64,000 nucleotides of DNA, taken from NCBI GenBank assembly GCA_965116475.1, contig OZ220691.1, positions 1,856,001 through 1,920,000 of the forward strand. Direction: 5' to 3'. Below are positions 33,306 through 53,091 of the stretch, one piece after another. This DNA comes from Gemmatimonadota bacterium (GTDB lineage Bacteria > Gemmatimonadota > Gemmatimonadetes > Palauibacterales > Palauibacteraceae). Under the pieces are notes generated by a model. The model searched no databases, had not been told where the DNA came from, and saw only the letters and a program-made list of their open reading frames with translations. Each line of letters opens with the position of its first letter. Positions within the stretch are counted from its first letter, which is position 1. The position numbers were made by a program, and so were the translations under genes.

Positions 33306-33977
33306 TCACGCGTCCGCCGCGAGCAGGTCGCAGAAGACGAAACCGTCGCGTTCCACGACCTCGCCGCGCGCGACCGGGATCGGCCGGGGCAGGATCGGGC
33401 CGTCCCAGACGAAGGTATGGAACTCTCCGTTCTCCCCGCACGGATCCACACCCTCCGGAAGATCGGCGACGAAAGACGCGTCGAAAGCGCGACCCGCGAA
33501 GGAGGCGTCCAGCACCGCCGGGTTGACGCACACCGCGATGGCCTCGAACCCGTCCCGGATGAAGATACGCGCGAGCACGGCGGTGGGTTGCTTCCAGATC
33601 GGGAACAGGCACTCCAGCCCGGAGGCGGCGAGCTGTCGTTCGCGGTACTCCCGGAGATCCTCCAGGAAGATGTCCCCGAACGCCACGCGACGGATCCCGT
33701 CCTCGTGGACGCGGTCGAACGCCTCGCCCATGGCGCGTTCGTAGATCTCGTTGGAGGACTGCGGGGGGACGACGACCTCGATCAGCGGGACGCCGATGGC
33801 CGCCGCCTGGTCGCGCACGAGCGCGCGCCGTACGCCGTGCATGCTCACCCGGTCGTAGGCGTCGGTCACCGTCGTGATCAGCGTCTCGACCCGATAGTCT
33901 CCGGACCGCTGGAGCGCGTACAGGGCCAGGGCGCTGTCCTTGCCGCCGCTGAAGCACATCGCGATGCGTTCCCTCAC
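33306..33977 (-). CDS. Dph6/MJ0570-like PP-loop ATP pyrophosphatase (diphthine-ammonia ligase family)
   Basis: SGGKDS PP-loop, SMHGVR, FGDIFL, DPCGENGEFHTFV. Confidence 0.88.
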   Translation of the reverse strand: MRERIAMCFSGGKDSALALYALQRSGDYRVETLITTVTDAYDRVSMHGVRRALVRDQAAAIGVPLIEVVVPPQSSNEIYERAMGEAFDRVHEDGIRRVAFGDIFLEDLREYRERQLAASGLECLFPIWKQPTAVLARIFIRDGFEAIAVCVNPAVLDASFAGRAFDASFVADLPEGVDPCGENGEFHTFVWDGPILPRPIPVARGEVVERDGFVFCDLLAADA

Positions 33978-34008
33978 CCGGCGGTCACTCCAGCGCCTGC
34001 TCCGGCGC

Positions 34009-35589
34009 TCACTCCAGAACCGTGGCCTGGAACGCTCCCGTGAGGACGCGGCCGTCGCGCTTCACCTGAACCCAGATCGTGTACTCGCCCGGCTGGGGGA
34101 ACGCGAACGGAAACTCGACGACGCCGGTGGGGGCGTCCGTCCCGCCGCCCGCCATCGGCGATCCGTCCGGCGCGAGCACCGAGAGCGATCCCATCGAGAT
34201 CGTGCCCGCGGGATGCAGGTGGACGAACACGGCGCCGTCGTCCCGCGTGAGCGCGGCGTGGCTGAGCATCCCCATGTAGGGCTCCAGTTCGGCCGGCTTC
34301 TCGTCGGGGTCCCAGAGCCTGAATGCGAGGACGGTCTCCTCGTCGACACGAAGTTCCTGGTTCCCCTGCCATTCGAGGATCGAACCGTCGTCCAGCCGTG
34401 CCTCCGAACCCGGCCCGGAGAGCGCGACCGGAACGCCCGTCCATGCCGAGTCGTCCGGGTCGCCTTGCAGGCCCGCCGGTTCGCGCGGCCGCAAGGCCTG
34501 GGCCTCGGGGGGCGCGACGCCCTCCTCGGGGGCCGCCGCCGAAATCGCCAGCGCCGCCGGGTCGACGATCACCGTGTCGACGACCGTCTGCGCGAAACCG
34601 GACTCCTGGACGATGTCGCCGTAGATGCGGTACTCGCCCGCCGGCAGGTCCGGCCACGGGACGCGGAACGTGGACGAGTCCACGGGAACGGGGTGTATGT
34701 GGGCGAACGCGTCCATGCCCGGCGCGCCGACCACGAACAGGTGCATGAGCTTGCCGTGGTCCGGCACCAGCGGGCTCCAGTTGCGGCCCCGCCAGGCGGG
34801 ATCGATAATCGCGATCTCCAGAGCGGGCCTCCCCCCATCGCGCACGAGCGCGCCCTCGACGGCGAGACGCTCGAAGATCCCGCTGCGAACGTCCCGGTCG
34901 ACCGACTCCCACCACGCGTTCCCCAGGTAGAGGAGACCCGCGACGCCGACGGCCGTGAAGGCCATGGCGATCCGGGCGCGGCGACGCCGTTTCGGGCCCG
35001 CCTCCTCGCCCGCCGGGATCTGGCTCTCGCGCACCGCGGCCCCCGTGATGGAGACCACGCCGGCGACGAGCAGAAGCCCCAACGCGGCCAGGATCCAGCC
35101 CAGCCCCGGCGGCAGGTCGCGCACGCCGAGCATGACCGAGGTCACCGGGACCGAGACCTCGCCGCTCCCCCGACTCCCCTCCACGGCGATCTCGATCCGG
35201 TAGGCGCCCACCGTCATGAGCCACAGTTCGGCGGCGTACAGTTCCGGATCGCCCGCCACGGGGACGGCCACGTCGGGGGGCGGCGCTCCGCCTTCCGGGG
35301 CCGCGTCCCAGCGCACGGGGCGCACGGTCACGCGCTCCGCCCCGCCGCCCGACACGCGGACGGAGATCTCCGCCAGCCCCGGGATGACCTCGGGGGGACG
35401 GATGACGACGGACACGGGATAGGGGCCCGCCTCGCCCGAGAAGAACACGTTGTTGCTCCCGACGTGCCCCGTCGCCACGACGTACAGCCCGACGACGAAC
35501 GCCGCCGCGCGCGTCAGCCGGGCGACCCGGCCGCGCGTCCCTCGGACGGTCTGGCCGCGCGTCAGTCGGGTAGCCCGGCCGGGTCTCAC
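34009..35589 (-). CDS. His/Met-rich membrane-anchored putative copper-binding protein with PmoB-like topology
   Basis: GTG 35589 overlaps the upstream TGA; signal-like segment then HVGS; two central TM helices; C-terminal HGKLMHLF/FAHIHP and YMGMLSHA/FVHLHP repeats. Confidence 0.65.
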   Translation of the reverse strand: MRPGRATRLTRGQTVRGTRGRVARLTRAAAFVVGLYVVATGHVGSNNVFFSGEAGPYPVSVVIRPPEVIPGLAEISVRVSGGGAERVTVRPVRWDAAPEGGAPPPDVAVPVAGDPELYAAELWLMTVGAYRIEIAVEGSRGSGEVSVPVTSVMLGVRDLPPGLGWILAALGLLLVAGVVSITGAAVRESQIPAGEEAGPKRRRRARIAMAFTAVGVAGLLYLGNAWWESVDRDVRSGIFERLAVEGALVRDGGRPALEIAIIDPAWRGRNWSPLVPDHGKLMHLFVVGAPGMDAFAHIHPVPVDSSTFRVPWPDLPAGEYRIYGDIVQESGFAQTVVDTVIVDPAALAISAAAPEEGVAPPEAQALRPREPAGLQGDPDDSAWTGVPVALSGPGSEARLDDGSILEWQGNQELRVDEETVLAFRLWDPDEKPAELEPYMGMLSHAALTRDDGAVFVHLHPAGTISMGSLSVLAPDGSPMAGGGTDAPTGVVEFPFAFPQPGEYTIWVQVKRDGRVLTGAFQATVLE

Positions 35590-36806
35590 CGGCGGACGCG
35601 CAGCCACCAGTTCCCCAGCCACAGCCCCGAGCGGGCCGAGACGAACGCGATCGGCAGCGCCCACCACGCCGCGGACAGGAAGCGCGAAGCCGAGAACTCG
35701 CCCCCAAGGAACTGGCCGCCGTGCCAGAACACGTTCTCCCAGTTGCCGGGCGCCGCCGTGTAGCCCCACGTGTTGCCCTGGAAGAAGTAGTTCCGCGCCC
35801 CGTCCGACAGCATGAAATCGGCGAACACCCACTGGATGACGCCGAAGACGCCCACGAAGGCGACGCCGCCCACGGCCGCGATCCGCCAATCCGCCGAGGC
35901 CCGCTCGGGCGCCTCTCCCGGCGCCGAATGCCGCCGCAGCAGGAGGTCGATCACGATCGCCGGCGCGAACAGGAGGAGCGGGAACTCGGGCGCCACCATG
36001 TGGGTGACCGGGCGCAGGATCGGCGCCAGCATCGGCTCCGCCGGGAAGAGCGGCAGCACCCACATCATCGCCAGCGAGATCCCCGTGTAGATCAGCGTCG
36101 CGCACGTCGCGGGCCAGCGCATCTGCCCGGCCCGCCCGATGGCGAAGAGGAGGACGGGGAAGAGCCCCGCCATGATGAGGTGGAACGTGGCCCCGTGCAT
36201 CTGGTTCGGGAACGTGTACTCCATGAGCAGCACGGAGAGCGACAGGATCAGCATCGCGGCGCTGAACACGTACGCCCACGCGAGCTTGCGCCGGCCCGTC
36301 TCCGAGGCGCGGTTGTGCCACGACAGCGCCATCAGGAGGGCGCCGACCTGGATTGCATAGATTCCAAGCGCGAGGACGACATGGGGCGGGCTCAGGATCT
36401 CGACGTCGAGCCCGTACGCGTTGTGCCACCAGTCGTCGAGCGGCGCGGACGCGAGCATGGCGATCGCGCCCCAGATCGCCACCCATGCCCCGAGCGGCGC
36501 CCGGAACCCCCACAACCGCACGGAACGCCCCACTTCCCCGTCCGTCCCGGAGAACGTCGTCTTGAGCGCGAGCCACCCGCATGACAGCCCCGCCGCCAGC
36601 CCGCCCGCGTAGACCAGCAGGTGGGCCGGCGTGAAGAGCGTGTCGCGCCCGATCGTCCGGTGCCACGAGATATCCCACGTGATGCCCACGATCACCGCCG
36701 CCGAGGCGAACAGGACCGCGCTCAGATACCACGGGATGCTGTCCGCCGACTCCGCCGCGCCCTCGCGCTCCGTGAAGACCGAAGCCGGTGCTACCGTCGA
36801 TTCCAT
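35586..36806 (-). CDS. Polytopic membrane protein with two PmoC/AmoC-type metal-binding motifs
   Basis: WDISWHRTIGRDTLFTPAH and LDDWWHNAYGLDVEILSPPH; many TM helices; start taken at ATG 36806. Confidence 0.7.
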   Translation of the reverse strand: MESTVAPASVFTEREGAAESADSIPWYLSAVLFASAAVIVGITWDISWHRTIGRDTLFTPAHLLVYAGGLAAGLSCGWLALKTTFSGTDGEVGRSVRLWGFRAPLGAWVAIWGAIAMLASAPLDDWWHNAYGLDVEILSPPHVVLALGIYAIQVGALLMALSWHNRASETGRRKLAWAYVFSAAMLILSLSVLLMEYTFPNQMHGATFHLIMAGLFPVLLFAIGRAGQMRWPATCATLIYTGISLAMMWVLPLFPAEPMLAPILRPVTHMVAPEFPLLLFAPAIVIDLLLRRHSAPGEAPERASADWRIAAVGGVAFVGVFGVIQWVFADFMLSDGARNYFFQGNTWGYTAAPGNWENVFWHGGQFLGGEFSASRFLSAAWWALPIAFVSARSGLWLGNWWLRVRR

Positions 36807-36948
36807 TGCGTTCCCCTGCTGCGTTCCCCTGCGTTCCCCCGAGTTCCGTCCAACCGCAGCCAGTTGCTCAATGAGCCGCGGGCTATCGACACACCCGATC
36901 CACCGCCCGAAGATAGGTCTGGTTCCATCGAAATGCAGGAGATTCAAC

Positions 36949-38427
36949 GTGAGATCACCCAGATTCCGCCGTGTCCGCCCGGTTGCCGCCCTCGCCCTCG
37001 GGGTCGCCGCCTGCTCCGCGCCGGACCCGACGTCGGACCCGGCATCGGATCCCGCTGCCCCGGATGCGTCCGATTCGTCCCCTGCCTCCCTGGCGCCGGA
37101 CCAGGTCGACGCGATTCACGAGCTCGCGGCCGCCCCCATCGAGGCCGGTCGGACCGCCGGCATGTCGATCGCGGTCGTGCGCGGGACGGACACCCTCCTG
37201 ATCGAGGAGTTCGGTCACGCCGACCTCGAACTCGGCGTGCTGACGCCGCCGGACGCCGTCTACGAGGTCGGGTCCGTGACCAAGCAGTTCACGGCCGCGG
37301 CCGTCCTCCTCCTGCACGAGGAAGGGAAGCTCTCCCTCGACGACCCGCTCACGAGGTGGCTGCCCGATTACCCGGTCGGGGACCGGACCGTCACCGTCCG
37401 CCGACTCCTGGACCACACCTCGGGCATCAAGGGCTACACCGAGATGGAGCACCTGTGGGTCGAACTCGCGCCCCTCGACCTGCCGCGGGACACGCTCGTC
37501 ACCCTCTTCGCCGCCGAGCCGTTCGAGTTCGAGCCCGGCACCGCGATGACCTACAACAACTCGGCGTACTTCCTCGCCGGACTCGTCATCGAGGCGGCGA
37601 GCGGCATGAGCTACGAGGACTTCGTCGAGGAGCGCCTCTTCGGACCGGCCGGGATGGAGAACTCCCGCTACTGCCACAAGGACGAACTCACCCCGAATCG
37701 AGCGAAGGGGTATGAGCCGCGCGAGGACGGGCTGCACCCGGCGCCCTACCTGGACCATCAGTGGCCCTACGCCGCGGGATCGCTCTGCTCCACGGTGCGC
37801 GACCTCGTCGCCTGGAACCAGGCCCTCCACGGAGACGGCGCGGGCGGCGAGATCCTGAGTCCGGAGAGCTACCGGCTGATGATCACGCCGGAGCCCCTGC
37901 TCGACGGGACGGAGCTGCGCTACGCGAAGGGTCTCGCGGTCACGGATCGGGGCGGAACCCCGCGGATCGGACACGGAGGGGGGATCTTCGGCTACGTCTC
38001 CGACCTCCGCTACGTCCCGTCCGAGGATCTGTCCATCGCGGTACTCATCAACACGGCCGGAGGCGCCTCGTCCGGCGGGATCGCCGGCCAGATCGAGAAC
38101 GTGGTGCTCGGGGAGCCGGCAGAGCGCGCCGCGGCGCCCTTTGAAGGCGATCCCTCGCCCTACGCGGGCCGCTACGAAGGCCCGGCCCGTGGCCAGCGCA
38201 TCACCGCGACGGTGGCCGCCGAGGACGGACAACTGACGGTCAACACGGGGGTCGGCGAGCCGGCCACCCTCTCGTGGCTGGGCGGCGATGACTTCGCCGA
38301 TGGGCGGACCCGCTACCGCTTCATACGGGACGGAGATTCCGGAGCCGCCGGAGCCGTGGCCCCGTTCGATGAGCTTCGGATGGATGTCGTATCGGGACAC
38401 TTCGTCCTGCGGAGGATGACCCCATGA
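36949..38427 (+). CDS. Serine hydrolase (class C beta-lactamase / D-aminopeptidase-like) lipoprotein
   Basis: AGGAG RBS plus GTG, VAAC lipobox, SVTK, YNN, HGG motifs. Confidence 0.85.
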   Translation: MRSPRFRRVRPVAALALGVAACSAPDPTSDPASDPAAPDASDSSPASLAPDQVDAIHELAAAPIEAGRTAGMSIAVVRGTDTLLIEEFGHADLELGVLTPPDAVYEVGSVTKQFTAAAVLLLHEEGKLSLDDPLTRWLPDYPVGDRTVTVRRLLDHTSGIKGYTEMEHLWVELAPLDLPRDTLVTLFAAEPFEFEPGTAMTYNNSAYFLAGLVIEAASGMSYEDFVEERLFGPAGMENSRYCHKDELTPNRAKGYEPREDGLHPAPYLDHQWPYAAGSLCSTVRDLVAWNQALHGDGAGGEILSPESYRLMITPEPLLDGTELRYAKGLAVTDRGGTPRIGHGGGIFGYVSDLRYVPSEDLSIAVLINTAGGASSGGIAGQIENVVLGEPAERAAAPFEGDPSPYAGRYEGPARGQRITATVAAEDGQLTVNTGVGEPATLSWLGGDDFADGRTRYRFIRDGDSGAAGAVAPFDELRMDVVSGHFVLRRMTP

Positions 38428-40271
38428 CCGCGTATCGAACCGTCGCCCGCCCCGCTCGCGGTGCTCCCGTCGCCCTCGTCGCCTCCCTCGCGGGGCCGGT
38501 CGTCGTACTCGCCGGGCTCGTCACGGCGCCCGCCCGCCCCGCCGCGGCCCAGGATCTGGGTCCGCTCGTCGGGACGCAGACGAGCGAACTCGCGGCCGTC
38601 GTGGAGCGCTACAGCACCGACCGGTCGGCGCTGGGGCGGCGCTGGAACGTCTCCTACTCGCCCGAGCGCAACGCGCGCTTCCGCGACTTCTTCTCGGACT
38701 GGCGGCGCCGGGTGGGGGCGCTCGACTTCGAGGCGCTGAGCCTGGAGGGGCGCGTGGATTACGTCCTCCTCCTCAACGAACTGCGCTATCGGCTCGACCT
38801 CCTGACGCGCGAGGCGGGGCTCGCCGCCGAGATGGACGGATTCATCTCCTTCACCTCGCTCATCGTGGATCTGGAGGAGCGCCGGCGGCGCCGGGAGCCG
38901 GTGGAGTCGGAGTCCGCCGCGGCCCGTCTCGCGGAGCTTCCCGCCGAGATCGAAACCACCCGCGCGGAGGTCGAGGCCCGGCTCGAGGGAGGGGAAGATG
39001 TGTCCCGGATCGTCGCGCTCCGGGCGGTCACGGCGCTGGCCGAGCGCACGCGTCTCCTCGAGGACTGGTACGAGCACTACGCCGGCTACGATCCCGTCTT
39101 CACCTGGTGGAACGAGGACCCGTACGCCCGCGCGAAGGCCGCCCTCGACGGCTACGCGACCTTCCTGCGCGAGTCGGTGATCGGCTACCGGGCGGGCGAG
39201 GACGAACCGATCGTCGGCGACCCGATCGGGGCGGAGGGTCTCGCCGCGGACCTGCGCCACGAGATGATCCCGTACACGCCCGAGGAGTTGATCGCGATCG
39301 CGGAGCGGGAATACGCCTGGTGCGAGGCGCGGATGATCGAGGCCTCGCGCGAACTCGGCTACGGGGACGACTGGCGGGCGGCGCTCGAATACGTGAAAAC
39401 GCTGCACCGTGACCCCGGCGACCAGCCGCAGATGATCCGGGAACTCGCCGATGAGGCGCTCGCCTTCGTCACCGAGCGCGACCTCGTCACCGTTCCCCCG
39501 CTCGCCGACGAGATCTGGCGCGTCGAGATGATGTCCCCGGAGCGCCAGAAGGTGTCGCCCTTCTTCCTCGGCGGGGAGGTGATCCAGGTCTCCTTCCCCA
39601 CGGACGGGATGGAGCACGAGTACAAGCTCATGAGCATGCGGGGGAACAACGAACATTTCTCCCGCGCCACCGTGCACCACGAACTCATCCCCGGACACCA
39701 CCTGCAGGGGTTCATGACGAGCCGCTTCAACTCGCATCGCGGCGCCTTCTCGACGCCGTTCTGGGGCGAGGGGTGGGCGCTCTACTGGGAGATGCTGCTC
39801 TGGGATCTCGGCTTCCCGTCGACCCCCGAGGACCGGATCGGCATGCTGTTCTGGCGCATGCACCGCACGGCCCGGATCATCTTCTCCCTCTCCTTCCACC
39901 TCGAGCGCATGACCCCGCAGGAGGCGATCGACTTCCTCGTGGAGCGGGTGGGGCACGAGCGGGCGAACGCGGAGGCGGAGGTGCGGCGGAGCTTCAACGG
40001 CTCCTACTCGCCGCTCTACCAGGTGGCCTACATGATCGGCGGGCTGCAGTTCCGGGCCCTCCACGAACAACTCGTGCAGTCGGGGGAGATGACGAACCGC
40101 GCCTTCCACGACACGATCCTCAGGGGCGGCCGGATGCCGGTCGAGATGGTGCGCGCGCGCCTGCTCGGCGAGGCGCCGCCGGAGGATTTCGAGTCGGAGT
40201 GGCGGTTCGAGGGCGACCCGCTGCGCCGCACGACCTCCGAGGAGCCGGCCTCGCCGGAGACCGCACACTGA
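38424..40271 (+). CDS. DUF885 family secreted protein (putative metallopeptidase)
   Basis: HHELIPGHHLQ, EGWALYWE, AEVRR, Y..G..Q motifs; overlaps the upstream stop. Confidence 0.82.
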   Translation: MTAYRTVARPARGAPVALVASLAGPVVVLAGLVTAPARPAAAQDLGPLVGTQTSELAAVVERYSTDRSALGRRWNVSYSPERNARFRDFFSDWRRRVGALDFEALSLEGRVDYVLLLNELRYRLDLLTREAGLAAEMDGFISFTSLIVDLEERRRRREPVESESAAARLAELPAEIETTRAEVEARLEGGEDVSRIVALRAVTALAERTRLLEDWYEHYAGYDPVFTWWNEDPYARAKAALDGYATFLRESVIGYRAGEDEPIVGDPIGAEGLAADLRHEMIPYTPEELIAIAEREYAWCEARMIEASRELGYGDDWRAALEYVKTLHRDPGDQPQMIRELADEALAFVTERDLVTVPPLADEIWRVEMMSPERQKVSPFFLGGEVIQVSFPTDGMEHEYKLMSMRGNNEHFSRATVHHELIPGHHLQGFMTSRFNSHRGAFSTPFWGEGWALYWEMLLWDLGFPSTPEDRIGMLFWRMHRTARIIFSLSFHLERMTPQEAIDFLVERVGHERANAEAEVRRSFNGSYSPLYQVAYMIGGLQFRALHEQLVQSGEMTNRAFHDTILRGGRMPVEMVRARLLGEAPPEDFESEWRFEGDPLRRTTSEEPASPETAH

Positions 40272-40290
40272 CGCGCTGAAAGGACGACCC

Positions 40291-42219
40291 ATGGCTCGCG
40301 ACCCGCAGTTGACGGCGATCACCGGCATCCTCCTCGCTCTGAGCGCCGCTGCCGGCGGACGGGGCGAGCTTCACGCGCAGAACGGCGGCGGGGACGGCGC
40401 GCTCTCGATCGACCAACTCCTCTCCATCGAGTCCGTCGTCGGGGGCGCGCCCGCCTGGTCGCCGGACGGCTCGGCGATCCTGTTCGAGTCCGGGCTCACG
40501 GGCGGGCTCATGACCCTGCCCCCCGAGGGCGGGTTCCCCACGCGGGTGCCCGTGGACATGGGCGGCTCCGGCCACTTCCTCACCTCCCAGATGCCGGGCT
40601 GGTCGCCCGCGGGCACATGGATCTCGTATGTGTCGGACAAGAGCGGCGCGCCCGAGATCTGGCTGTGGTCGACGCGCGACGGCGCCGACGTGCAGCTCAC
40701 CGACCTCGGGGCGCGGATCAACTCGATGAGCTGGTCCCCGGACGAGCGCTCGATCGTCTTCGCCGGCGACCGCTACGGGAACTACGACATCTGGACGGTG
40801 GACGTCGCCACCCGGCGCGTGGACCGCATCAGCGAGGACAAGCGTTACGAGGTCTTCCCCACCTGGACGCCGGACTCGCGCCACATCCTCTACGTCCGCC
40901 TCGACGAGGCGTGGGAGGACCACGACGTGATCGAGGTGGACGCCATGGGCGGCAGCCCGCGCACGGTGATCGAGGACCGCGACTTCTTCGACTACGGAGC
41001 CGGGGCGACCTTCGGCTACCCGAGCGTGTCGCCCGGCGTGTCTCCCGATAGCGGCTCGATCCTCTTCCGCTCGCACCGGAGCGGCTGGATCAACTACTGG
41101 CTCGCGCCGCGGGATGGGGGAGACCCGCGTCCGGTGGCGCCCGCCGAGGCCGACCAGAGCGCCGCCGCGTGGTCCCCCGATGGACGCTGGATCGCCTACA
41201 CGGAGAACCACAACGGGCACCACGACCTGCGCGTCGTCTCGGCGGACGGCGGCGAGCCGCGGGTGCTCGTGTCGCCGAAGGGCGGCGTCGCGTCGAGTCC
41301 CTCATGGTCTCCGGACGGCCGGGCGATCGCGTATCTGCAGGAGGATCTCCTGAACCCGCGCGACCTCCATGTCGTCTCGCTCGAGGACGGGAGCAGCCGG
41401 CAGCTCACCTCCTCGATGCCCGCTGGCGACTACGGCGCCCGGCTCGTGGCGCCGGAGAAGATCCGCTACGAGAGCACGGACGGATACTCGATCCCGGCCT
41501 ATCTCTACCGGCCGCCGGGGGCCGCGGCCGGGGACGGTCTCCCCGGCGTGATGTGGATCCACGGGGGTCCCACGTCGCAGTTCCACGACACCTTCCAGCA
41601 GCACGTGCAGTTCTTCGTCCAGCGCGGGTACGTCGTGCTCCTGCCCAACATCCGCGGGAGTTCGGGCTACGGGAAGGACTTCGCCGACGCGAACAACGGC
41701 TGCTGGGGGCACTGCGACCTGGAGGATGTCGTCGCGGGCGCGGACTACCTGCGGGCGCTCCCGGAGGTCGACCCGGAACGGATCGGGATCACGGGGACGA
41801 GCTACGGCGGCGTGATGAGCATGTACGCCGTGGCCTTCGCCCCCGACGCCTTCCGCGCGGCGATCCCCGGGTCGGGCTACACGGACTGGGTCCACTTCTA
41901 CCACGGCGAGAACGAACTGCGGCACATCAAGCTGCTCGACCACGAACTCGGCCCCTTCGAGACCAGCGAGGACGTGTGGAGCCACAGTTCGTCGATCTCG
42001 CACGTCGCCGACGTCTCGACGCCGATCCTCCTCGTCCACGGCGTCGGGCGCTATCCGGGCTCCGACCAGTCCGAGATCTTCGCGCGGGCGCTGGAGAACT
42101 ACTACAAGCCGTTCCAGTACAAGACGTACCCGAACGAGAACTACTACGTGTACGGGAAGGCGAACCGCCGCCAGATGCTCCTCGACATGCTCGACTTCTT
42201 CGAACAGTTCCTGAAGTGA
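40291..42219 (+). CDS. S9 family peptidase homolog with PD40/TolB-like propeller
   Basis: Signal peptide, WSPDG repeats, IHGGP, N.RGSSGYG, GTSYGG nucleophile; canonical Asp and His not found. Confidence 0.85.
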   Translation: MARDPQLTAITGILLALSAAAGGRGELHAQNGGGDGALSIDQLLSIESVVGGAPAWSPDGSAILFESGLTGGLMTLPPEGGFPTRVPVDMGGSGHFLTSQMPGWSPAGTWISYVSDKSGAPEIWLWSTRDGADVQLTDLGARINSMSWSPDERSIVFAGDRYGNYDIWTVDVATRRVDRISEDKRYEVFPTWTPDSRHILYVRLDEAWEDHDVIEVDAMGGSPRTVIEDRDFFDYGAGATFGYPSVSPGVSPDSGSILFRSHRSGWINYWLAPRDGGDPRPVAPAEADQSAAAWSPDGRWIAYTENHNGHHDLRVVSADGGEPRVLVSPKGGVASSPSWSPDGRAIAYLQEDLLNPRDLHVVSLEDGSSRQLTSSMPAGDYGARLVAPEKIRYESTDGYSIPAYLYRPPGAAAGDGLPGVMWIHGGPTSQFHDTFQQHVQFFVQRGYVVLLPNIRGSSGYGKDFADANNGCWGHCDLEDVVAGADYLRALPEVDPERIGITGTSYGGVMSMYAVAFAPDAFRAAIPGSGYTDWVHFYHGENELRHIKLLDHELGPFETSEDVWSHSSSISHVADVSTPILLVHGVGRYPGSDQSEIFARALENYYKPFQYKTYPNENYYVYGKANRRQMLLDMLDFFEQFLK

Positions 42220-42875
42220 GGCCCCCCGCCCGCGCCGCGCAGCTCCTTGCCGCGACGATCCTCGTCCCGGGCTGCGAGCGCGTCGAACCCGTGCCGTCCT
42301 CCGAGGTCGGGGCAGAGGCCATCGCTGCCCGAGCCGCGACCGAGGCCGGCCCGGTCGACGTGGTGGTCGAGACGAGCCAGGGGGAGTTCGTCATCGCCGT
42401 GCACCGCGAGTGGGCGCCGCTGGGAGCCGAGCGGTTCCTGACCCTCGTCGAATCCGGCTACTACGACGACGCCCGCTTCCACCGCGTCGTCCCCGACTTC
42501 ATCGTCCAGTGGGGGCTGGCCGGCGACCCCGCCTTCACCGCCGAGTGGATGAACGCCTACATCCCCGACGATCCCGTCGTCGCCTCCAACACCCGCGGCC
42601 GCATCGCCTTCGCCTTCACCGACCCCGGCACCCGCGCCACCCAGGTGTATATCAACCTTGTGGACAACGTGCGCCTCGATTCGACGGGATTTGCCCCGTT
42701 CGGCGAGGTAGTGAGCGGGATGGAGGTCGTGGATGCGCTCTACTCCGGCTACGGAGAGAACTCCGGCGGCGGCCTGCGGCGGGGCGACCAGACCCGGATC
42801 GTCGCGGAGGGCAATACCTACCTCGACCGCGAATATCCCCTCCTCGACCGCCTCATCCGAGCTGTCCGCCGCTGA
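42216..42875 (+). CDS. Cyclophilin-type peptidyl-prolyl isomerase
   Basis: FHRVVPDFIVQWG, SNTRG, TQVYINL.DN..LD..GFAPFGEV; GTG overlaps the upstream stop. Confidence 0.88.
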   Translation: MRPPARAAQLLAATILVPGCERVEPVPSSEVGAEAIAARAATEAGPVDVVVETSQGEFVIAVHREWAPLGAERFLTLVESGYYDDARFHRVVPDFIVQWGLAGDPAFTAEWMNAYIPDDPVVASNTRGRIAFAFTDPGTRATQVYINLVDNVRLDSTGFAPFGEVVSGMEVVDALYSGYGENSGGGLRRGDQTRIVAEGNTYLDREYPLLDRLIRAVRR

Positions 42876-42914
42876 CCCTGCCCCTCCGGCAGCAGGTGGA
42901 GCCGCTCCGAAGCG

Positions 42915-43622
42915 CTAAGAGGTTGCCTTCTGTAGTGCGAACAGTTCGCCAGCGCCGGCGGCGGCGAGTGACAGGAGGTCGTCGAGTTCGGCGCGGGTGA
43001 AGGGGGCTCCTTCGGCTGTTCCCTGGACCTCGACGAGGCGGCCGTCTTCGAGGTGGACGAAGTTGAAGTCGACGTCGGCGGCGGCGTCCTCCACGTACTC
43101 CAGGTCGAGCCTCGCCTCGCCGTCCACCATGCCGGCGCTGATCGCGGCGACCCACTGGCGGAGCGGGCTCGCTTCGAGCGCGCCGTCGGAGACGAGCCGC
43201 TGGAACGCCATCTCGAGCGCCACGCAGGCGCCCGTGATCGAGGCGGTGCGGGTGCCGCCGTCGGCGACGAGGACGTCGCAGTCCACGGTCACGGTCCGCT
43301 CGCCGAGCGCCTTGAGGTCGACGGCCGCCCGCAGCGAGCGGCCGATGAGGCGCTGGATCTCCTGGGTGCGCCCTCGGGCTCCGCGACGCTCGCGACGCGT
43401 GCGCTCGGCCGTGGCCCGGGGCAGCATGGCGTACTCGCCCGTGACCCAGCCGCCGCGGCCCTCCCGCCACGGCGGCACCTTCTCCTCGACCGAGGCCGTG
43501 CAAAGCACGCGCGTCATCCCCATCGTGATCGTGCACGATCCCTCGGCGAAGGGGGCCGTTCCCGTCTCCAGGGTCGTGGGGCGCAGGGCGTCCAGCGCCC
43601 GCCCGTGTGGACGTGCCGGCAT
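42915..43622 (-). CDS. rph: Ribonuclease PH
   Basis: [51 protein letters not shown]. Confidence 0.96.
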
Positions 43623-43660
43623 GGGGCAGCCTCGGTCGAAAGGTCGAAAAGGGAGAACCG

Positions 43661-45376
43661 ATGAACGTCGAACGCGTTGAGAGTATGCCGGCCGCGACCC
43701 CGCTGCGATGGCGGATCCCGGCGCTCCGTTCCCCGGCGCGTCGCCGAGCACCCGCGCGCGCGGTAGTCGCGTGCCTGACGCTGGTGGGCACGACCCTGGC
43801 CTGCGCGCCGGGCGACGCTCCCGTGGCGGAGGGGGAGATCGTCCCGACGAGCGTGCTGCTCACGGGCGCGACGGTGCTTGACGGATCCGGCGGACCGTCG
43901 TTCGTGGCCGATGTGGCGGTGGAGGGCGACCGGATCGCCTTCGTCGGCGATGCCTCGGCGGCGAACCTCGCCCTGCGCGACACCATCGCGCTCGACGGCC
44001 TGCTGCTCACGCCCGGCTTCATCGACATGCACAGCCACATCACCGTCGCCAGCCTCGGCGAGGCCTACGGGCTCACGGCGGTCGAATTCCTCACCCAGGG
44101 GATCACGACCGGCGTCATCGGGGTCGACGGCTCGAGCAGCACGGACCTCGCCTCGCTCTACGCGGACCTCGAAGAATCCGGCGTCGGAAAGAACATCATC
44201 TCCTACATCGGACACGGTTCCGTGCGCGGGGCCGTCATCGGCATGGACGACCGCGATCCCACCGCGGGAGAACTCGACGAGATGAAGGCGCTTGTCCGAC
44301 AGGGAATGGAGGACGGCGCCTTCGGGCTCTCCACGGGTCTCTTCTACACGCCCGGCTACTACGCGGAAGCCGACGAAGTGATCGAACTCGGCCGGGTGGC
44401 GGCGGAGTACCCGATCGGCGGCGAGCACGCCCCCATCTACGACACGCACGACCGGGATCTCGGCGCGGCCTACCAGGGGATCGGCTACCACGATTCGATC
44501 CGCGAGGCGATCCACATCGGGGCGGAGTCGGGCCTCCGCACCATCTTCAGCCACTTCAACGCGCAGGGGGCGGCGCTGTACGGACGTGCCTCGGAAGGCG
44601 CCGCGATCATCGATTCGGCGCGCGCGGAGGGACTCGAGGTGGCGGGCGCGCAGCACGTCTACACGTCCACGATGTCGAGCCTGCGTGCCTACACGATCCC
44701 GCGCTGGGCGCAGGCGGGCGGCCCGGAGCAGATGGTGCGCCGCTTCCAGCACCCCGACACCGCGCGGGTCCTCGACGTGCAGACGATGGAGATGCTGGAG
44801 ATCCGCGGCGGGCCGGAGAGGATCGTGTTCGCCGACGCGAGACCCGAGTTCAACGGCAAGACGCTGGCGGATGTGGCGGCCGAGCGGGGGCTGCCCGTGC
44901 CCGAGGCCGTGCGCGAGATCATGTCCGAGTCGAACCCGTGGGTGATGAACCGCGATCTCTACGACGTCGAGAACACGCGCTATCTCGCGACGATGCCGTG
45001 GATGATGACGTGCACGGACGGCGCCACGCCCGCGCCCGGGGCCGAGATCGTGCATCCGCGCGTGTACGGCACCTTCCCGAAGAAGATCAAGGACTTCGTG
45101 GACCGGGACGGCGCGATCGGACTCCCGTTCGCGATCCGGAGCATGTCGGGCCTCGCCGCGGACTTCCTGCGGCTGGACGATCGCGGCTACATCCGCGAAG
45201 GTCTGGTCGCGGACATCGCGGTCATCGACCTCGACCGGTTCACGGACCGGGCGACGTACGACGACCCGCACCAGTTGTCCGAGGGCGTCGTGCACGTACT
45301 CGTGAACGGTCGCTTCGCGATCCGCGACGACGAGGTGACCAGCGAACTCGCCGGCCGCCCCCTGCGCCGCCCCTAA
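43661..45376 (+). CDS. N-acyl-D-amino-acid deacylase-like amidohydrolase, probable lipoprotein
   Basis: [41 protein letters not shown]. Confidence 0.87.
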
Positions 45377-45387
45377 ATGGCTGAAGG

Positions 45388-45702
45388 GTGAGTGAGGTGA
45401 GCGCGAAGAACCGCATGAGGCCGGTGCATCCCGGCGAAATCCTGCGTCAGGAACTCGACGAGCTCGGGCTATCGGCCAACGCGCTCTCGAAAGCGCTTGG
45501 CGTGCCCGTCAATCGGGTGACCATGATTCTGAACGGCCAGCGGGGCGTTAGCGCGGACACGGCCCTCCGGCTGGCCCGGTACTTCGGGACGACGGCGCAG
45601 TTCTGGTTGAACCTGCAGAAGACATGGGAGCTTCGCCGAGCCGAGATCGAGGCAGGCCGTGAGATCGCCAGGCAGGTGACGCCCCGGCATGCGGTTGTAT
45701 AA
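45388..45702 (+). CDS. higA: HigA family antitoxin / HTH regulator (no toxin adjacent)
   Basis: HPGEIL, SADTALRLARYFGTT.QFWLNLQ. Confidence 0.9.
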   Translation: MSEVSAKNRMRPVHPGEILRQELDELGLSANALSKALGVPVNRVTMILNGQRGVSADTALRLARYFGTTAQFWLNLQKTWELRRAEIEAGREIARQVTPRHAVV

Positions 45703-47587
45703 CGGCGGCGTGGACGAAAGAGGCTTCCCAGCGACCGTCGCGGCCCTGCTCGCGTGCACCGTCCTTCCGGCGGCGGGCGCTGCGCAGACGGGGCTTGTGA
45801 TCGAGGACGGGCAGGCGCGGATCGTGCCCGCCTTCGCGGATTCGTCCGCCTGGATCCGCCATGAACTCTGGGTCGAGACCGAGTTCGACTCCGACGGCGA
45901 TGGTCGGCCAGACCGGGTGCACCTGGATGTGACGCGTCCGGGTCAGACCGACGGCGAGGGGCTCAGGGTGCCGGTCATCTACGAGACGAGCCCCTACTAC
46001 TCGGGCGTCGCCGGCATCGATTTCGCGCACTTCTGGGACCTGCGCCAGGAGGTGGGCGGCGAAGCCCCGCCGCGCGATCCGTTCCCGGCCACGATCCAGC
46101 ACATCGAGCGCCAGCCGCGGATCTCGAACTCGCACGTCGCGACCTGGGTGCCGCGGGGGTTCGCGGTGGTCCACTCGCAGTCGCCGGGGACGGGCCAGTC
46201 CCAGGGATGCCCGACCGTGGGCGGCGCGAACGAATCGCTGGCGCCCAAGGCCGTGATCGACTGGCTCAACGGCCGGGCGCGGGGCTTCACGAGCGTGGAC
46301 GGAGACGAGCTGGTCGAGGCCCACTGGGCGACGGGCCGCGTGGGGATGACGGGCACCTCCTACAACGGCACGCTCCCCCTGGCCGCCGCGACCACCGGCG
46401 TAGAAGGGCTGGAGGCGATCATCCCCATCGCGCCGAACACGTCCTACTACCACTACTACCGCTCCAACGGGCTCGTGCGGTCGCCGGGCGGCTATCCCGG
46501 CGAGGACATCGACGTCCTGTTCGACTTCATCTTCAGCGGCTTCCCCGAAGTCCGCGACTACTGCCTCGCCAACGTGCGCGACGAGATGACGGCGCAACTG
46601 GACCGGACGACGGGCGACTACAACGACTTCTGGGCGGGCCGCGACTACCTGAACCACGTCGACGGCGTGCGCGCGGCCACGCTCATGAGCCACGCCTTCA
46701 ACGACTGGAACGTTATGCCCGAGCACAGCCACCGCATCTCGGCGGCGCTGCGGGACCGGGGCGTGCCGTTGCAGATCTACTACCACCAGGGCGGGCACGG
46801 CGGGGCGCCCCCGCTCGAACTCATGAACCGGTGGTTCACCCGCTACGTGGTCGGCGTCGAGAACGGCGTGGAGGAAGACGCGGCGGCGTGGATCGTGCGG
46901 GAGGGAGACGACCGGCGGGAGCCCACGCCCTACCCGGACTATCCCCACCCGGAGGCCGACGCCGTGACGCTCCGGCCGGATGGCGACGGACACTGGACGG
47001 GGACCCTCTCCCTCGATGAGTCGGAGGCGGGCTCCGGGGGCGCGGACGCCGGGACCGGTGCGATCGTCGACAACTTCGCGTTCACCGGGAATCAGTTGGC
47101 CGCGGCCGAGTGGTCGAACCACCGGCTGCTGTACGCGACGCCGGAACTGCGCGAGGATGTCCACCTGTCGGGCGTGGCCACCGTCCGCGTGCGGATGTCG
47201 GCCGACGCCCCCGCGGCCAACCTGTCGGTGTGGCTGGTGTCGCTGCCGTGGACCGGGGACGGGGAGATCAACGACAACCTCATCACCAGGGGTTGGGCCG
47301 ATCCGGCCAACGCGGGCGCCGAGGACATCGCCTCGCCGCGCACCGGCACACGGCTCACGCCGGGAGCGTTCGTCGACCTGGAGTTTGCGCTTCAGCCCGA
47401 CGACCAGATCATCCCGGCCGGAGCCCGCATCGGATTGATGATCTTCTCCAGCGACAAGTTTTTCACGCTGCACCCGGAACCCGGCACGACCCTGACCGTC
47501 GACCTGGGAGAAACTCGCCTCGCGCTGCCAGTCGTGGGCGGGAACGCGGCGCTGCGGCGCGCCCTGGGCGTCCCCGCCTCGCAGTAG
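45689..47587 (+). CDS. Xaa-Pro dipeptidyl-peptidase (S15, PepX/CocE-like)
   Basis: DSDGDG, SPYY, GTSYNG nucleophile, PepX_C-like C-terminus; the start may be GTG 45710. Confidence 0.87.
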   Translation: MRLYNGGVDERGFPATVAALLACTVLPAAGAAQTGLVIEDGQARIVPAFADSSAWIRHELWVETEFDSDGDGRPDRVHLDVTRPGQTDGEGLRVPVIYETSPYYSGVAGIDFAHFWDLRQEVGGEAPPRDPFPATIQHIERQPRISNSHVATWVPRGFAVVHSQSPGTGQSQGCPTVGGANESLAPKAVIDWLNGRARGFTSVDGDELVEAHWATGRVGMTGTSYNGTLPLAAATTGVEGLEAIIPIAPNTSYYHYYRSNGLVRSPGGYPGEDIDVLFDFIFSGFPEVRDYCLANVRDEMTAQLDRTTGDYNDFWAGRDYLNHVDGVRAATLMSHAFNDWNVMPEHSHRISAALRDRGVPLQIYYHQGGHGGAPPLELMNRWFTRYVVGVENGVEEDAAAWIVREGDDRREPTPYPDYPHPEADAVTLRPDGDGHWTGTLSLDESEAGSGGADAGTGAIVDNFAFTGNQLAAAEWSNHRLLYATPELREDVHLSGVATVRVRMSADAPAANLSVWLVSLPWTGDGEINDNLITRGWADPANAGAEDIASPRTGTRLTPGAFVDLEFALQPDDQIIPAGARIGLMIFSSDKFFTLHPEPGTTLTVDLGETRLALPVVGGNAALRRALGVPASQ

Positions 47588-48978: not shown

Positions 48979-49269
48979 TCAGCGGCCCGCATCCTTCCCG
49001 GTGTCGGCGGATTCCCCCGTCCGGTGCCGCACGTAGCTCTCCAATACGCGGTTCATCCGCGTCTGGTAGCCCTTACCTGGTGCCTTGAAGTACGCCAGCA
49101 CGGAGCGCTTCACGCGCATGGTGATCTGGTCGGTCAGATCCGGTTCGACGAGTTCCGCCCGCTCCCAGAACCCCTCGTCCAGTTCTGCGATGTCGCTGAA
49201 GTCGATGCTCTCGTCCTTCACCGCCGCGATCTGCTCGGGCGTGAGGGGCCTATCGTAGCGTCCGCTCAT
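48979..49269 (-). CDS. brnA: BrnA antitoxin
   Basis: IDFSDI.EL...FW, ITMR....VL.YFK..GKGYQTRMN.VL. Confidence 0.88.
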   Translation of the reverse strand: MSGRYDRPLTPEQIAAVKDESIDFSDIAELDEGFWERAELVEPDLTDQITMRVKRSVLAYFKAPGKGYQTRMNRVLESYVRHRTGESADTGKDAGR

Positions 49270-49528
49270 TGTAGACTCTCCTTTCCTTCCGCGACGCCGG
49301 GCGGGCGGAGATCAGACGGATACGCCCGCGGCGCTCGGTGTGGGTCACCACGATCAGCGCTCCGGGCTCGACCCGGCCTATGCTGATGCGCCGGTCCTCG
49401 CCGTAGTCCCGGCGACGGTCCGGTGAAGTTGCGACGGTCCCCTCGAAGATGAGCTTGGCGGTCTCGAACCCGATGCCGTGCTTGCGGATGTTCGTCCGGT
49501 TCTTGGCCTCGTCCCACTCGAATTCCAT
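49250..49528 (-). CDS. brnT: BrnT ribonuclease toxin
   Basis: MEFEWDEAKN..N.RKHGI.FE, YGEDR, RLISAR.A...ER..Y; overlaps brnA. Confidence 0.9.
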   Translation of the reverse strand: MEFEWDEAKNRTNIRKHGIGFETAKLIFEGTVATSPDRRRDYGEDRRISIGRVEPGALIVVTHTERRGRIRLISARPASRKERRVYNERTLR

Positions 49529-49549
49529 CGATCCATCATACATATGAAT

Positions 49550-49559
49550 TGTAGTTACA
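49550..49559. promoter_or_regulatory. TGTA-GT-TACA inverted repeat, candidate brnTA operator
   Basis: AT-rich patch about 20-30 bp upstream of the brnT ATG; autoregulation is inferred. Confidence 0.35.
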
Positions 49560-49568
49560 GCAACGCGT

Positions 49569-49760
49569 GCCGTCGCGGTCCCCGTCGGCTCCTCGATGAT
49601 CTTCGTCATGGGCGCGGGCTGGCTCTCGGTCGTCACCGATCTCGGCCCCGGCGACCTCTTCGCCGTCGGCGTGCAGCCGTTCCTGGTGGGCGCCGTCGTG
49701 AAGGCGGCCATCCGCTTCGCGGCGACGCGCCGGATCACGGCGAGGCGTCGGCGGCACTGA
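49569..49760 (+). pseudogene. bioY: C-terminal fragment of a BioY-like biotin transporter
   Basis: Manual translation AVAVPVGSSMIFVMGAGWLSVVTDLGPGDLFAVGVQPFLVGAVVKAAIRF... resembles the BioY C-terminus (G..WL...GV.PF..G...K); in-frame TGA at 49545 removes the N-terminal part. Confidence 0.65.
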
Positions 49761-49893
49761 TCCGCGTCTCGCCACCCCAGGATCGGTTGCGAAACCGTTC
49801 AGGATTGTATTCGTACGCCTGATTCGGTATGCCTGTTCGGCAGATTTGCGGCCGGACAGCCCCTCGGTAACGGACGTCACCACGCGGCGAAGC

Positions 49894-50604
49894 ATGAGGA
49901 CCCACCACACAGCGCACGTCACGCGCGCCATGCGCGTTGCACTCTTCGGCTTGCTCGCGGTCGTACAGGCGTGTGCCAGCGCGGGGTCCGGCGGCCGTCC
50001 AGCCGAGACGGCGGCTCGCCCCGACGCGGTCCGCCCGGATGCGGCGCGCGTGGCCGAACTCGAGGCGATCTACGAGGCGCGCGCGGCTGCCGCCCTCGAG
50101 GGCGCCCACGAGGCGGACATCCGCTTCATGACGCACATGATCCCGCATCACGCGCAGGCTCTGGTCATGGCGGGTTTCGCCCCGGCCGCGGGCGCGAGTC
50201 CCTCGATCCGGACGCTGTGCGCGAGGATCATCAACGCGCAGACCGATGAGATCGCCGTCATGAGCCGCTGGCTCTCGGAGCGCGGGCTGCCGGTGCCCGA
50301 TACCGGCGACATGCGCGGCCACGGGGAAGGGGCCATGCTCATGGCCGGGATGCTGACCCGCGAACAACTCGCGGCACTCGAAGCCGCGCGCGGTCCCGAC
50401 TTCGACCGCCTCTTCCTCCGGTACATGATCCAGCACCACCAGGGCGCCGTGACGATGGTTCGGGAGTTGTTCGCCACCGATGGCGCGGCGCAGGACGACT
50501 TCGTGTTCAAGCTGGCCTCCGACATCCACGTCGATCAGGCCACGGAAATCGCCCGCATGGAACTTATGCTCGAGGCGCTCGCCGCGCCGGAGCCGGGCGG
50601 CTGA
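49894..50604 (+). CDS. DUF305 (ferritin-like, CopM-related) lipoprotein
   Basis: QAC lipobox; MIPHHAQA and MIQHHQGA double-His motifs, Q..EI. Confidence 0.88.
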   Translation: MRTHHTAHVTRAMRVALFGLLAVVQACASAGSGGRPAETAARPDAVRPDAARVAELEAIYEARAAAALEGAHEADIRFMTHMIPHHAQALVMAGFAPAAGASPSIRTLCARIINAQTDEIAVMSRWLSERGLPVPDTGDMRGHGEGAMLMAGMLTREQLAALEAARGPDFDRLFLRYMIQHHQGAVTMVRELFATDGAAQDDFVFKLASDIHVDQATEIARMELMLEALAAPEPGG

Positions 50605-50637
50605 TTTGTGCAGTTCAACCCCATCGAAGGATCCGAC

Positions 50638-52728: not shown

Positions 52729-53091
52729 ATGCCCACGCTGATCGAAGCCCCGGCCGTCATCGAGGCGGCCGGGAACCGACCCAAGCGGATCGAGGAATAC
52801 GCCGGCCGCATCCGGACGGGACAGGCTGACGTCAGCGTAGCGCGCATGGTGGCGCCGTCCGGCTGGGTCGAGCCGGGTCAGCGCCCCGAGTTCGAGGAGA
52901 TCACCGTCGTGCTGAAGGGATCGCTGCATGTAGAGCACGCGGGCGGCGTCCTGGAGGTAGAGGCCGGCCAGGCGGTTGTGACGCAAGCGGGCGAATGGGT
53001 CCGCTACAGCACGCCGGGCCCCGAGGGAGCCGAGTACATCGCCATCTGTCTCCCCGCCTTCTCTCCCGACACCGTCCACCGCGACCCCTAG
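52729..53091 (+). CDS. Cupin domain protein
   Basis: EPGQRPEFEE..VVLKG, GEWVRYSTP, C.PAFSP..VHR. Confidence 0.8.
   Translation: MPTLIEAPAVIEAAGNRPKRIEEYAGRIRTGQADVSVARMVAPSGWVEPGQRPEFEEITVVLKGSLHVEHAGGVLEVEAGQAVVTQAGEWVRYSTPGPEGAEYIAICLPAFSPDTVHRDP

Follow-up and report, generated by a model that had tools for sequence, protein, structure and literature searches.

A conserved two-gene membrane system in Gemmatimonadota and other bacteria is a remote relative of the copper membrane monooxygenase core

What kind of system is formed by two adjacent genes of a marine Gemmatimonadota bacterium, one of which carries motifs reminiscent of the copper sites of particulate methane monooxygenase (pMMO) and ammonia monooxygenase (AMO)? 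The genes lie in a 64,000-nucleotide stretch of contig OZ220691.1 (assembly GCA_965116475.1, positions 1,856,001 to 1,920,000), here called the window, in which all positions below are given. Gene A (P0001; 35586..36806, minus strand) encodes a 406-amino acid inner-membrane protein with 10 transmembrane helices that is remotely similar to PmoC/AmoC, and gene B (P0002; 34009..35589, minus strand, as for all features of the pair given below) encodes an exported, bitopic partner of 526 amino acids with three beta-sandwich domains; these assignments are based on their translations (stop-free for gene A), their homologues, and AlphaFold2 models. An earlier note on this DNA had proposed a remote relative of pMMO and AMO. 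We find that the pair is a remote, compact, and architecturally different relative of the core of copper membrane monooxygenases (CuMMOs), not a canonical CuMMO, and that it is probably a new and widespread copper membrane system. The two proteins are likely to form a copper-binding complex homologous to the PmoC core, while a role as a CuMMO-like redox enzyme is proposed more tentatively.

The evidence for this relationship starts with two motifs. Translated gene A contains D45-x3-H49-x12-H62 (DISWHRTIGRDTLFTPAH; 36621..36674), which resembles the CuC site of PmoC, and D124-x3-H128-x13-H142 (DDWWHNAYGLDVEILSPPH; 36381..36437), which resembles the CuD site with Asp where AmoC/PmoC has Asn; both are present at the residues and spacings that the earlier note had reported, and both are identified from the translation, the phmmer alignment, and family conservation. 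In the characterised enzymes, CuC consists of two His and one Asp and CuD of two His and one Asn, the two lie ~8 angstroms apart, and the active site has been assigned to the C subunit (PMC13058606, excerpt). Specifically, phmmer aligns gene A residues 44–142 with AmoC residues 135–225 of 9leg_C, placing D45/H49/H62 on D/H/H and D124/H128/H142 on N/H/H, which bears out the suggested replacement of Asn by Asp at the CuD-like site. The match to 1yew_C begins with W44 at chain residue 155, so that D45, H49, and H62 correspond to residues 156, 160, and 173 according to the match table, in agreement with the PmoC ligands D156, H160, and H173 named beforehand. Gene A and AmoC also have the flanking residues W-H, R-D-T-x-F-T-P-x-H, and P-x-H in common, the second of these being the RD..FTP.H loop whose likeness had been pointed out. 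The CuC ligand set Asp-x3-His-x12-His is thus found in gene A, aligned to AmoC/PmoC and conserved in the family, and the CuD-type spacing and both of its His are likewise aligned and conserved.

Profile and structure database searches by sequence lead to the same subunit. The Pfam family AmoC (PF04896) matches gene A with an E value of 1.1e-3 and 18.8 bits, residues 44–134 aligning with profile positions 124–206, and it is the sole Pfam family that matches more than 2 of the 54 aligned gene A family members (it reaches 10 of them with E<=0.1, best E 0.0011). The NCBIfam model TIGR03078 gives E 5e-4 and 19.5 bits. When the whole gene A protein is searched against the PDB, two AmoC chains are retrieved (E 6.6e-5 and 3.8e-4), followed by an irrelevant third match, PsaJ, at E 0.6; with a profile of the 54-sequence family all five matches are C subunits, and with residues 27–170 the 14 matches at E<=10 all come from the C subunit of AMO or pMMO, 10 of them at E<=0.012 and the best at 2.2e-5. 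Judged in this way, the link of gene A to PmoC/AmoC is weak in score but highly specific, and the remote relationship claimed in the earlier note stands, as the Pfam, NCBIfam, and PDB matches are specific to C subunits and the ligand sets are conserved throughout the family.

The C-subunit-like part of gene A comprises residues 26–166 (36309..36731), where PDB matches, the Pfam AmoC match, and a hairpin repeat define four transmembrane helices arranged as two tandem helical hairpins. Hairpins 1 and 2 align with a Smith-Waterman score of 47, compared with 27.2 +/- 5.2 for shuffled sequences (7 of 2000 shuffles reach 47), and hhalign pairs them with an E value of 7.7e-4 at a probability of only 25%, with D, W-H, G, D, and P-x-H in register. 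As their sequences indicate, the motif-bearing hairpins repeat one another within the protein, with matching ligand positions.

The ligands are conserved far beyond the window. Among the 270 relatives aligned to the family hidden Markov model, 228 cover all six positions, and 214 of these keep the set D-H-H-D-H-H intact; the loss of His/Asp residues in homologues, which the earlier note regarded as fatal to its proposal, is therefore confined to a minority. In representatives at 50% identity, the CuC-like ligands are found in 110 of 110 (D45), 102 of 111 (H49), and 112 of 112 sequences (H62), and the CuD-like ligands in 139 of 143 (D124, i.e. Asp rather than Asn), 132 of 143 (H128), and 138 of 146 (H142). 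Losses are correlated among the 228 relatives, with DEHDQQ seen three times and DDHDQQ once. In a minority clade (P0308, P0346, P0362, and similar proteins), H49 is replaced by E, D, or Q jointly with a change of H128 and H142 to Q; because the exceptions are mostly correlated, this clade has apparently lost both sites together, and proteins of the DEHDQQ type may be site-degenerate paralogues or may have an altered metal or function. Positions conserved in at least 85% of the same representatives cluster at residues 41–62 and 104–148, the others being H204, P262, P276, D287, and W326.

The AlphaFold2 model of gene A, built from the 54-sequence alignment, has ten long helices, a predicted local distance difference test score (pLDDT) of 92.7, and a predicted template modelling score of 0.91. 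Arg- and Lys-rich segments are found in the loops 87–104, 164–175, 227–231, and 294–304 and at the C-terminus, which by the positive-inside rule puts the two motifs where helices 1/2 and 3/4 reach the periplasm; we infer that both sites face the periplasm. Residues 167–406 (35589..36308) form six more transmembrane helices with periplasmic loops, as indicated by the model helices and by conservation (H204, P262, P276, D287, and W326 all lie here), and have no sequence similarity to any solved structure. Foldseek searches of the whole model against the PDB, among the 50 matches listed, return six chains (6cxh_B, 7s4h_B, 3rfr_B, 9cl6_B, 9pxf_D, and 9cl1_Ca; 238–274 residues) with probabilities of 0.82–0.97, target-normalised template modelling scores of 0.44–0.56, and 251–297 aligned columns, while the other listed matches have probabilities of at most 0.35 and template modelling scores of ~0.1–0.3. 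We take these six chains to be the A subunit, since in these entries chain C, G, or Ba is the C subunit and ~240–275 residues fits the length of the A subunit. As a control, a viral structure library gives nothing above a probability of 0.23 for gene A. Of the label "PmoC/PmoA-like" in the earlier note, the PmoC part is thus upheld by sequence, and the PmoA part has no sequence signal and follows from the Foldseek ranking (E>0.1) only. Gene A thus resembles the C subunit in the sequence of its N-terminal part and the A subunit in the fold of the whole chain; it may be a true C+A fusion.

The layout of gene B was read from a 35-sequence alignment and an AlphaFold2 model (pLDDT 84.6). It begins with a signal peptide (residues 1–41, 35467..35589; helix 19–39) with predicted cleavage after G41, followed by domain 1 (residues 42–151, 35137..35466), a YtkA/CtaK-like beta-sandwich recognised by Pfam YtkA-like matches that opens with an invariant H42-V-G. 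Two transmembrane helices (residues 161–188 and 199–235, 34885..35109), seen in the translation and the model, enclose an Arg-rich cytoplasmic loop (RRRRAR). Alignment and model then define two further beta-sandwiches, i.e. domain 2 (residues 244–342, 34564..34860), with invariant H278, H283, H297, and H299 (each in 120 of 120 homologues), and domain 3 (residues ~381–526, 34012..34449), with M439, M441, H444, and H459 (118 of 118 each) and H457 (117 of 118). The protein has exactly eight His (42, 278, 283, 297, 299, 444, 457, and 459) and no Cys, and all eight are conserved in 116–120 of the 120 homologues examined, with a lone exception, Gln at 457. The residue before H42-V-G is G or A in 116 of 116 homologues, and in 115 of 120 the HVG motif follows the annotated start by a median of 21 residues. 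Given the small residue at position −1 and the constant offset, His42 is very probably the N-terminal residue of the mature protein. Copper proteins with an N-terminal histidine ligand are known.

The only domain of gene B that can be recognised is of the YtkA type. PF13115 matches 12 of the 35 family members at E<=0.1, always in domain 1, with scores of 28.6 bits for P0171 (above the cut-off of 25.9), 25.8 for P0211, and 13.7 for the window's gene B. CopC (PF04234) gives sub-threshold matches in domains 2 and 3 in 3 of 35 members (17.4 vs 23.3 bits), including a weak match at gene B residues 462–522 (E 0.009). By sequence, gene B has no match to PmoB in the PDB; its family profile finds at best a nonsignificant "copper resistance protein" (9ll2_A, E 0.28), and whole-chain Foldseek returns generic immunoglobulin/fibronectin type III arrays only, with uninformative template modelling scores of ~0.15. 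The description of gene B as a PmoB-shaped partner therefore agrees with its topology and its mature N-terminal His, and homology to PmoB finds no backing in Pfam, PDB sequence, or Foldseek searches.

The two genes are joined by a GTGA start/stop overlap (35586..35589), located where it had been noticed before, in which the GTG of gene B (35589–35587) overlies the TGA of gene A (35588–35586). The pair belongs to a large family. At least 6595 of 8000 candidates scored are members of the gene A family, all named ones being annotated "hypothetical"; a 50%-identity library contains 2044 clusters at E<=1e-3, 1071 at 1e-10, and 235 at 1e-30, and relatives occur in at least 588 species-representative genomes. 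Gene B has at least 3475 homologues. In a survey of gene-pair conservation of the kind recommended in the earlier note, we kept 79 loci for context (from Palauibacter, Longimicrobiales, Gemmatimonadaceae, Thermoanaerobaculia, Vicinamibacterales, and others), and gene B lies directly downstream of gene A on the same strand in 78 of them (Gemmatimonadota, Acidobacteriota, and one metagenome-assembled genome titled "Deferribacteres"). In the sole locus without a partner, L055, the contig ends 122 bases after gene A. All-against-all clustering of open reading frames (ORFs) from 80 regions places only genes A and B in every region, the next cluster being found in 25. Two of the three longer proteins found are read-through fusions of A and B; we rejected these as likely assembly or gene-calling artefacts, each being seen once and with the partner's signal peptide still present. 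Neither Pfam nor NCBIfam has a name for either family, ESM Atlas holds only unnamed clusters for both proteins, and tblastn of the motif region against phages gives no match.

The carrier is, as the earlier note supposed, a non-methanotroph. Proteins of the window are ~98% identical to those of a Candidatus Palauibacter metagenome-assembled genome (L001), and for the Palauibacter order a chemoorganoheterotrophic, facultatively aerobic lifestyle has been described (PMC10469786, excerpt). The window also lacks a canonical pmoCAB, as had been stated: a Pfam scan of its 40 further ORFs detects no AmoA, AmoB, or AmoC. The neighbouring HtpX, Dph6-like ATPase, beta-lactamase family, DUF885, and S9 genes were considered as parts of the system and rejected, since they are conserved only within Palauibacter; each window neighbour is present in at most 34 of the 79 loci, HtpX and the Dph6-like ATPase in 18 each. 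For the 61 non-Palauibacter loci, we collected the 107 nearest credible ORFs and scanned the 72 within 300 nucleotides, dropping the 35 that lie farther away. None of these 72 ORFs, all from Gram-negative carriers, is a recognisable copper gene; 27 are of peptidase or amidohydrolase types (9 S15, 6 PD40+amidohydrolase, 11 M28, and 1 DUF885), and 4 are Fe-type alcohol dehydrogenases. Because they are confined to a few lineage-specific blocks, the peptidase and alcohol dehydrogenase neighbours represent few independent events.

The pair is often flanked by genes for secreted peptidases and amidohydrolases, the families of which vary by lineage (window 36631–47587, loci L017–L075). In the window these flankers are beta-lactamase family, DUF885, S9, amidohydrolase, and S15 proteins, and elsewhere S15, PD40+amidohydrolase, and PA-M28-TFR proteins. 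A functional link between the pair and these enzymes is possible.

Distant homologues provide another line of evidence on the metal. A tblastn search of gene A residues 40–145 against plasmids finds 9 records. One, a plasmid of Chondrinema litorale (Bacteroidota), carries the A+B pair itself; its context was rejected as a copper clue, as the resistance-nodulation-division efflux genes there are generic and CorA is not copper-specific. Plasmid proteins of Streptomyces and Mycolicibacterium (475–489 amino acids; L084 5944–7371, L081 4917–6362, and L080 4902–6371) keep both D/H/H motifs and are homologous to gene A residues 33–305 (hhalign probability 99, E 2.5e-18). These actinobacterial proteins have no separate partner; their PmoC-like domain runs on into a periplasmic domain, which begins with AHAHDPGQG, and then a transmembrane anchor. 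This fused C-terminal domain matches FixH/YtkA weakly (E 0.01 and 0.05), and hhalign of the gene B profile against the fused protein gives no significant match. The surrounding genes encode a multicopper oxidase, a cupredoxin, two DUF305 proteins, DUF5134, DUF6153, CcsB/ResB, CcdA/TlpA, a CopY-type regulator, and YHS; several of DUF305, DUF5134, and DUF6153 are known to travel with copper genes. Since the distant homologues sit among copper genes, copper is supported as the metal, and this does not decide between catalysis and trafficking. DUF305, of which the Streptomyces copper island with the distant gene A homologue has two, also occurs in the window, where a DUF305 protein is followed by a 694-amino acid ORF without a Pfam match (49846–52692, plus strand).

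How might such a pair work? We infer that the pair binds copper at two sites within the membrane that face the periplasm and at up to three more in the periplasm itself, and that the products of genes A and B physically associate. The two-gene operon would then give rise to a copper-binding inner-membrane complex. In each gene A hairpin, the Asp-x3-His would lie at the outer end of one helix and the remaining His at the start of the next; the hairpins are homologous to the PmoC/AmoC helices bearing CuC and CuD, and the six further helices would complete a chain with an A-subunit-like fold. Gene B would be exported, cleaved just before His42, the first residue of its YtkA/CtaK-type domain, and span the membrane twice like PmoB, carrying two more beta-sandwiches with His clusters; its periplasmic His sites could capture copper and hold it beside the two intramembrane sites of gene A, and these could carry out copper/O2 redox chemistry on a membrane-soluble or periplasmic substrate. 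Under this catalytic reading, which we favour tentatively and at somewhat less than even odds, the pair would be an oxidase or oxygenase that acts in a CuMMO-like manner and not in methane or ammonia energy metabolism. It is favoured because the only characterised homologues use these ligand sets catalytically, because both sites are kept together, and because the order of the pair, i.e. C-like, A-like (by fold), and B-like (by topology), mirrors that of xmoCAB (PMC6215863, excerpt).

A number of observations weigh against this reading. The scores of gene A are all under the curated cut-offs (18.8 vs 26.7 bits for PF04896, 19.5 vs 280.6 for TIGR03078, and 18.1 vs 319 for NF041641), Foldseek gives no PDB match at E<=0.001 (the six pMMO/AMO chains have E>0.1), and copper binding by the pair is deduced from sequence. 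Searching the PDB by sequence with a C-terminal-half profile (A4) yields no AmoA/PmoA, and Pfam detects no AmoA (PF02461) in 54 gene A family members and no AmoB (PF04744) in 35 gene B family members. The YtkA/CtaK domain of gene B is known from copper trafficking, not catalysis, and the distant actinobacterial homologues reside in islands of copper-homeostasis and cell-envelope genes. The pair also lacks a conserved reductase, alcohol, or hydroxylamine pathway next to it, and many carriers are labelled Thermoanaerobaculia, the cultured member of which is an anaerobe.

Copper trafficking without catalysis is nearly as likely as the catalytic reading. Here the partner would capture periplasmic copper and the D/H/H sites would take it for import or for delivery to membrane cuproenzymes such as haem-copper oxidases or NosZ, making the pair a functional analogue of CopC-CopD-YtkA (YcnJ) with CtaK. 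This explanation is favoured by the YtkA-like domain, seen in 12 of 35 partners, by the copper islands around the distant homologues, where the actinobacterial proteins are fused to a periplasmic FixH/YtkA-like domain, and by the lack of a conserved metabolic neighbour, which makes the pair resemble a housekeeping module; the weak CopC matches in domains 2 and 3 of gene B point the same way. YtkA, also called CtaK, has been linked to the assembly of CuA and forms the last domain of the YcnJ copper importer, and YcnJ requires His ligands both in its extracellular CopC domain and in its membrane CopD domain (PMC13344008, excerpt). However, the pair belongs to neither the CopD nor the CopC family, and the strongly conserved polar residues of gene A all lie at the periplasmic face except D287, with no transmembrane Met/His/Cys path visible. 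Moreover, copper genes are absent from the 72 neighbour ORFs of Gram-negative carriers, and the only homologues characterised so far use these same ligands for catalysis (PMC13058606, excerpt). A role for another metal (Zn, Fe, or Ni) or a non-redox role, e.g. metal supply or regulation for nearby secreted peptidases and amidohydrolases, we regard as improbable: His2-Asp sites are not specific to copper, and peptidase and amidohydrolase types account for 27 of the 72 neighbour ORFs and are also near the pair in the window, but these neighbours vary by lineage, lie mostly on the opposite strand, and reflect few independent events, and the recognisable relatives (AmoC/PmoC, YtkA, and CopC) and the contexts of distant homologues all indicate copper.

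It is very unlikely that the PmoC likeness is due to chance or to convergence of short His-rich membrane motifs. The similarity spans only ~100–120 residues and is below every curated cut-off, as such an origin would allow, but all 14 PDB matches are C subunits, both motifs align in order and spacing with the flanks WH, RD-x-FTP-x-H, and P-x-H in common, the two patterns occur jointly in only 38 of 200,000 shuffles of the gene A protein, and the independent fold search indicates the same enzyme. Just as hard to sustain, and if anything harder, is the view that the pair is a genuine, divergent CuMMO oxidising methane, ammonia, or short alkanes; the conserved CuC/CuD-type ligands and the CAB-like gene order speak for it, yet the AmoC, AmoA, and AmoB family thresholds are failed, there are two chains and not three, and the hundreds of genomes concerned belong to lineages not known for methane, ammonia, or alkane metabolism, with carriers described as chemoorganoheterotrophs (PMC10469786, excerpt).

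A literature search (supplements not covered) found no description of the gene A or gene B family, and we know of no CuMMO relatives described outside methane, ammonia, and alkane oxidisers. The origin of CuMMOs is unclear. The gene A family supplies such a relative, and with both copper sites of the C subunit retained in a simpler form that contains an internal duplication, it can serve as an outgroup for CuMMO evolution. The family is also large, with 2044 clusters at 50% identity and relatives in no fewer than 588 species genomes, and the two-gene system may offer a simpler experimental model for the disputed CuC/CuD chemistry. If the pair instead serves trafficking, it would be a new copper-handling route in phyla where few such routes are known and would suggest that a metal-handling scaffold was the basis on which CuMMO catalysis evolved. 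We think it rather unlikely, albeit worth stating, that the pair still represents the ancestral stock of pMMO and AMO, i.e. a two-chain enzyme made of a fused C+A subunit with a B-like partner that performs copper/O2-dependent oxidation of a substrate not recognised so far. In that case, it would be a new class of copper membrane oxygenase, possibly with biogeochemical weight, as its carriers are abundant soil and marine heterotrophs (Acidobacteriota, Gemmatimonadota, and some Bacteroidota).

Other features of the locus concern the gene starts and the surroundings of the pair. The gene A ORF can be extended to a TTG at 36947, but the ATG at 36806 is the likely start because the 12 closest homologues have 406 amino acids and a coverage of 100%. 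Upstream of the signal-peptide core of gene B there is no alternative ATG, GTG, or TTG. Three copies of GGGGAACGCA, spaced by 10 and 13 nucleotides, lie upstream of the gene A ATG on its strand (36807–36850) and end 1 nucleotide before that codon; they may serve in ribosome binding or be recognised by a regulator. A promoter and terminator scan yielded nothing useful. Several ORFs of 500–900 amino acids run over genes A and B in other frames (e.g. 33940–35763, plus strand), and these are by-products of the ~70% G+C. Farther away, a methyltransferase whose C-terminal domain is of the sterol methyltransferase type (E 4.6e-15) stands beside a Rieske/KshA-like oxygenase (6–1037, plus strand, and 1061–2095, minus strand); the presence of sterol-modifying genes in a Gemmatimonadota lineage associated with sponges or corals may be relevant to the use of sterols as biomarkers. 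A protein with a BrnT-type toxin domain and an N6/N4 DNA methylase are encoded at 49250–49738 and 53088–53939, both on the minus strand.

How, then, does the pair compare with known systems? YcnJ (CopC-CopD-YtkA) and CtaK/YtkA of Bacillus subtilis, which act in copper import and CuA assembly, also combine an extracellular beta-sandwich bearing His ligands with a polytopic membrane protein bearing His ligands, and YcnJ and gene B have a YtkA-type domain in common. By contrast, the pair has no CopD homology (PF05425 matches none of 54 gene A family members), its CopC similarity is sub-threshold, and its membrane part is PmoC-like. The actinobacterial class of ~475–490 amino acids, for example WP_024126299.1 of Streptomyces sp. 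F2 (pFRL4), is homologous to gene A, has both motifs, and is also annotated as hypothetical, but it differs in having a fused periplasmic domain instead of a partner and in its location in copper-homeostasis islands.

The closest comparison is with the CuMMOs, of which the pair is not a family member by any curated threshold. PmoC has ~250 amino acids, whereas the PmoC-like part of gene A is the N-terminus of a 406-residue chain with 10 transmembrane helices; the PmoC region upstream of the motifs has no counterpart in gene A, the second site starts with Asn in PmoC and with Asp in gene A, gene A scores far under the PmoC/AmoC cut-offs, and its carriers are heterotrophs without pmoA or pmoB. 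PmoA/AmoA are the sole confident structural neighbours of the whole-chain model among the Foldseek matches listed, but there is no sequence signal, and the A-like fold is in one chain with the C-like part. Compared with PmoB/AmoB, gene B has three domains and not two, a YtkA-like domain 1 with no recognised cupredoxin and no HxH (set against the CuB ligand set of PmoB), and no detectable similarity in sequence or fold. Nevertheless, gene B follows the membrane subunit(s) directly, as the PmoB/AmoB gene does, and has the same succession of signal peptide, periplasmic beta-sandwich, two transmembrane helices, and periplasmic beta-sandwich, with a mature N-terminal His. As in PmoC/AmoC (PF04896, TIGR03078), the four-helix region of gene A carries Asp-x3-His-x12-His and then (Asn/Asp)-x3-His-x13-His in the same order and spacing, within the same flanking residues and in the same periplasm-facing position.

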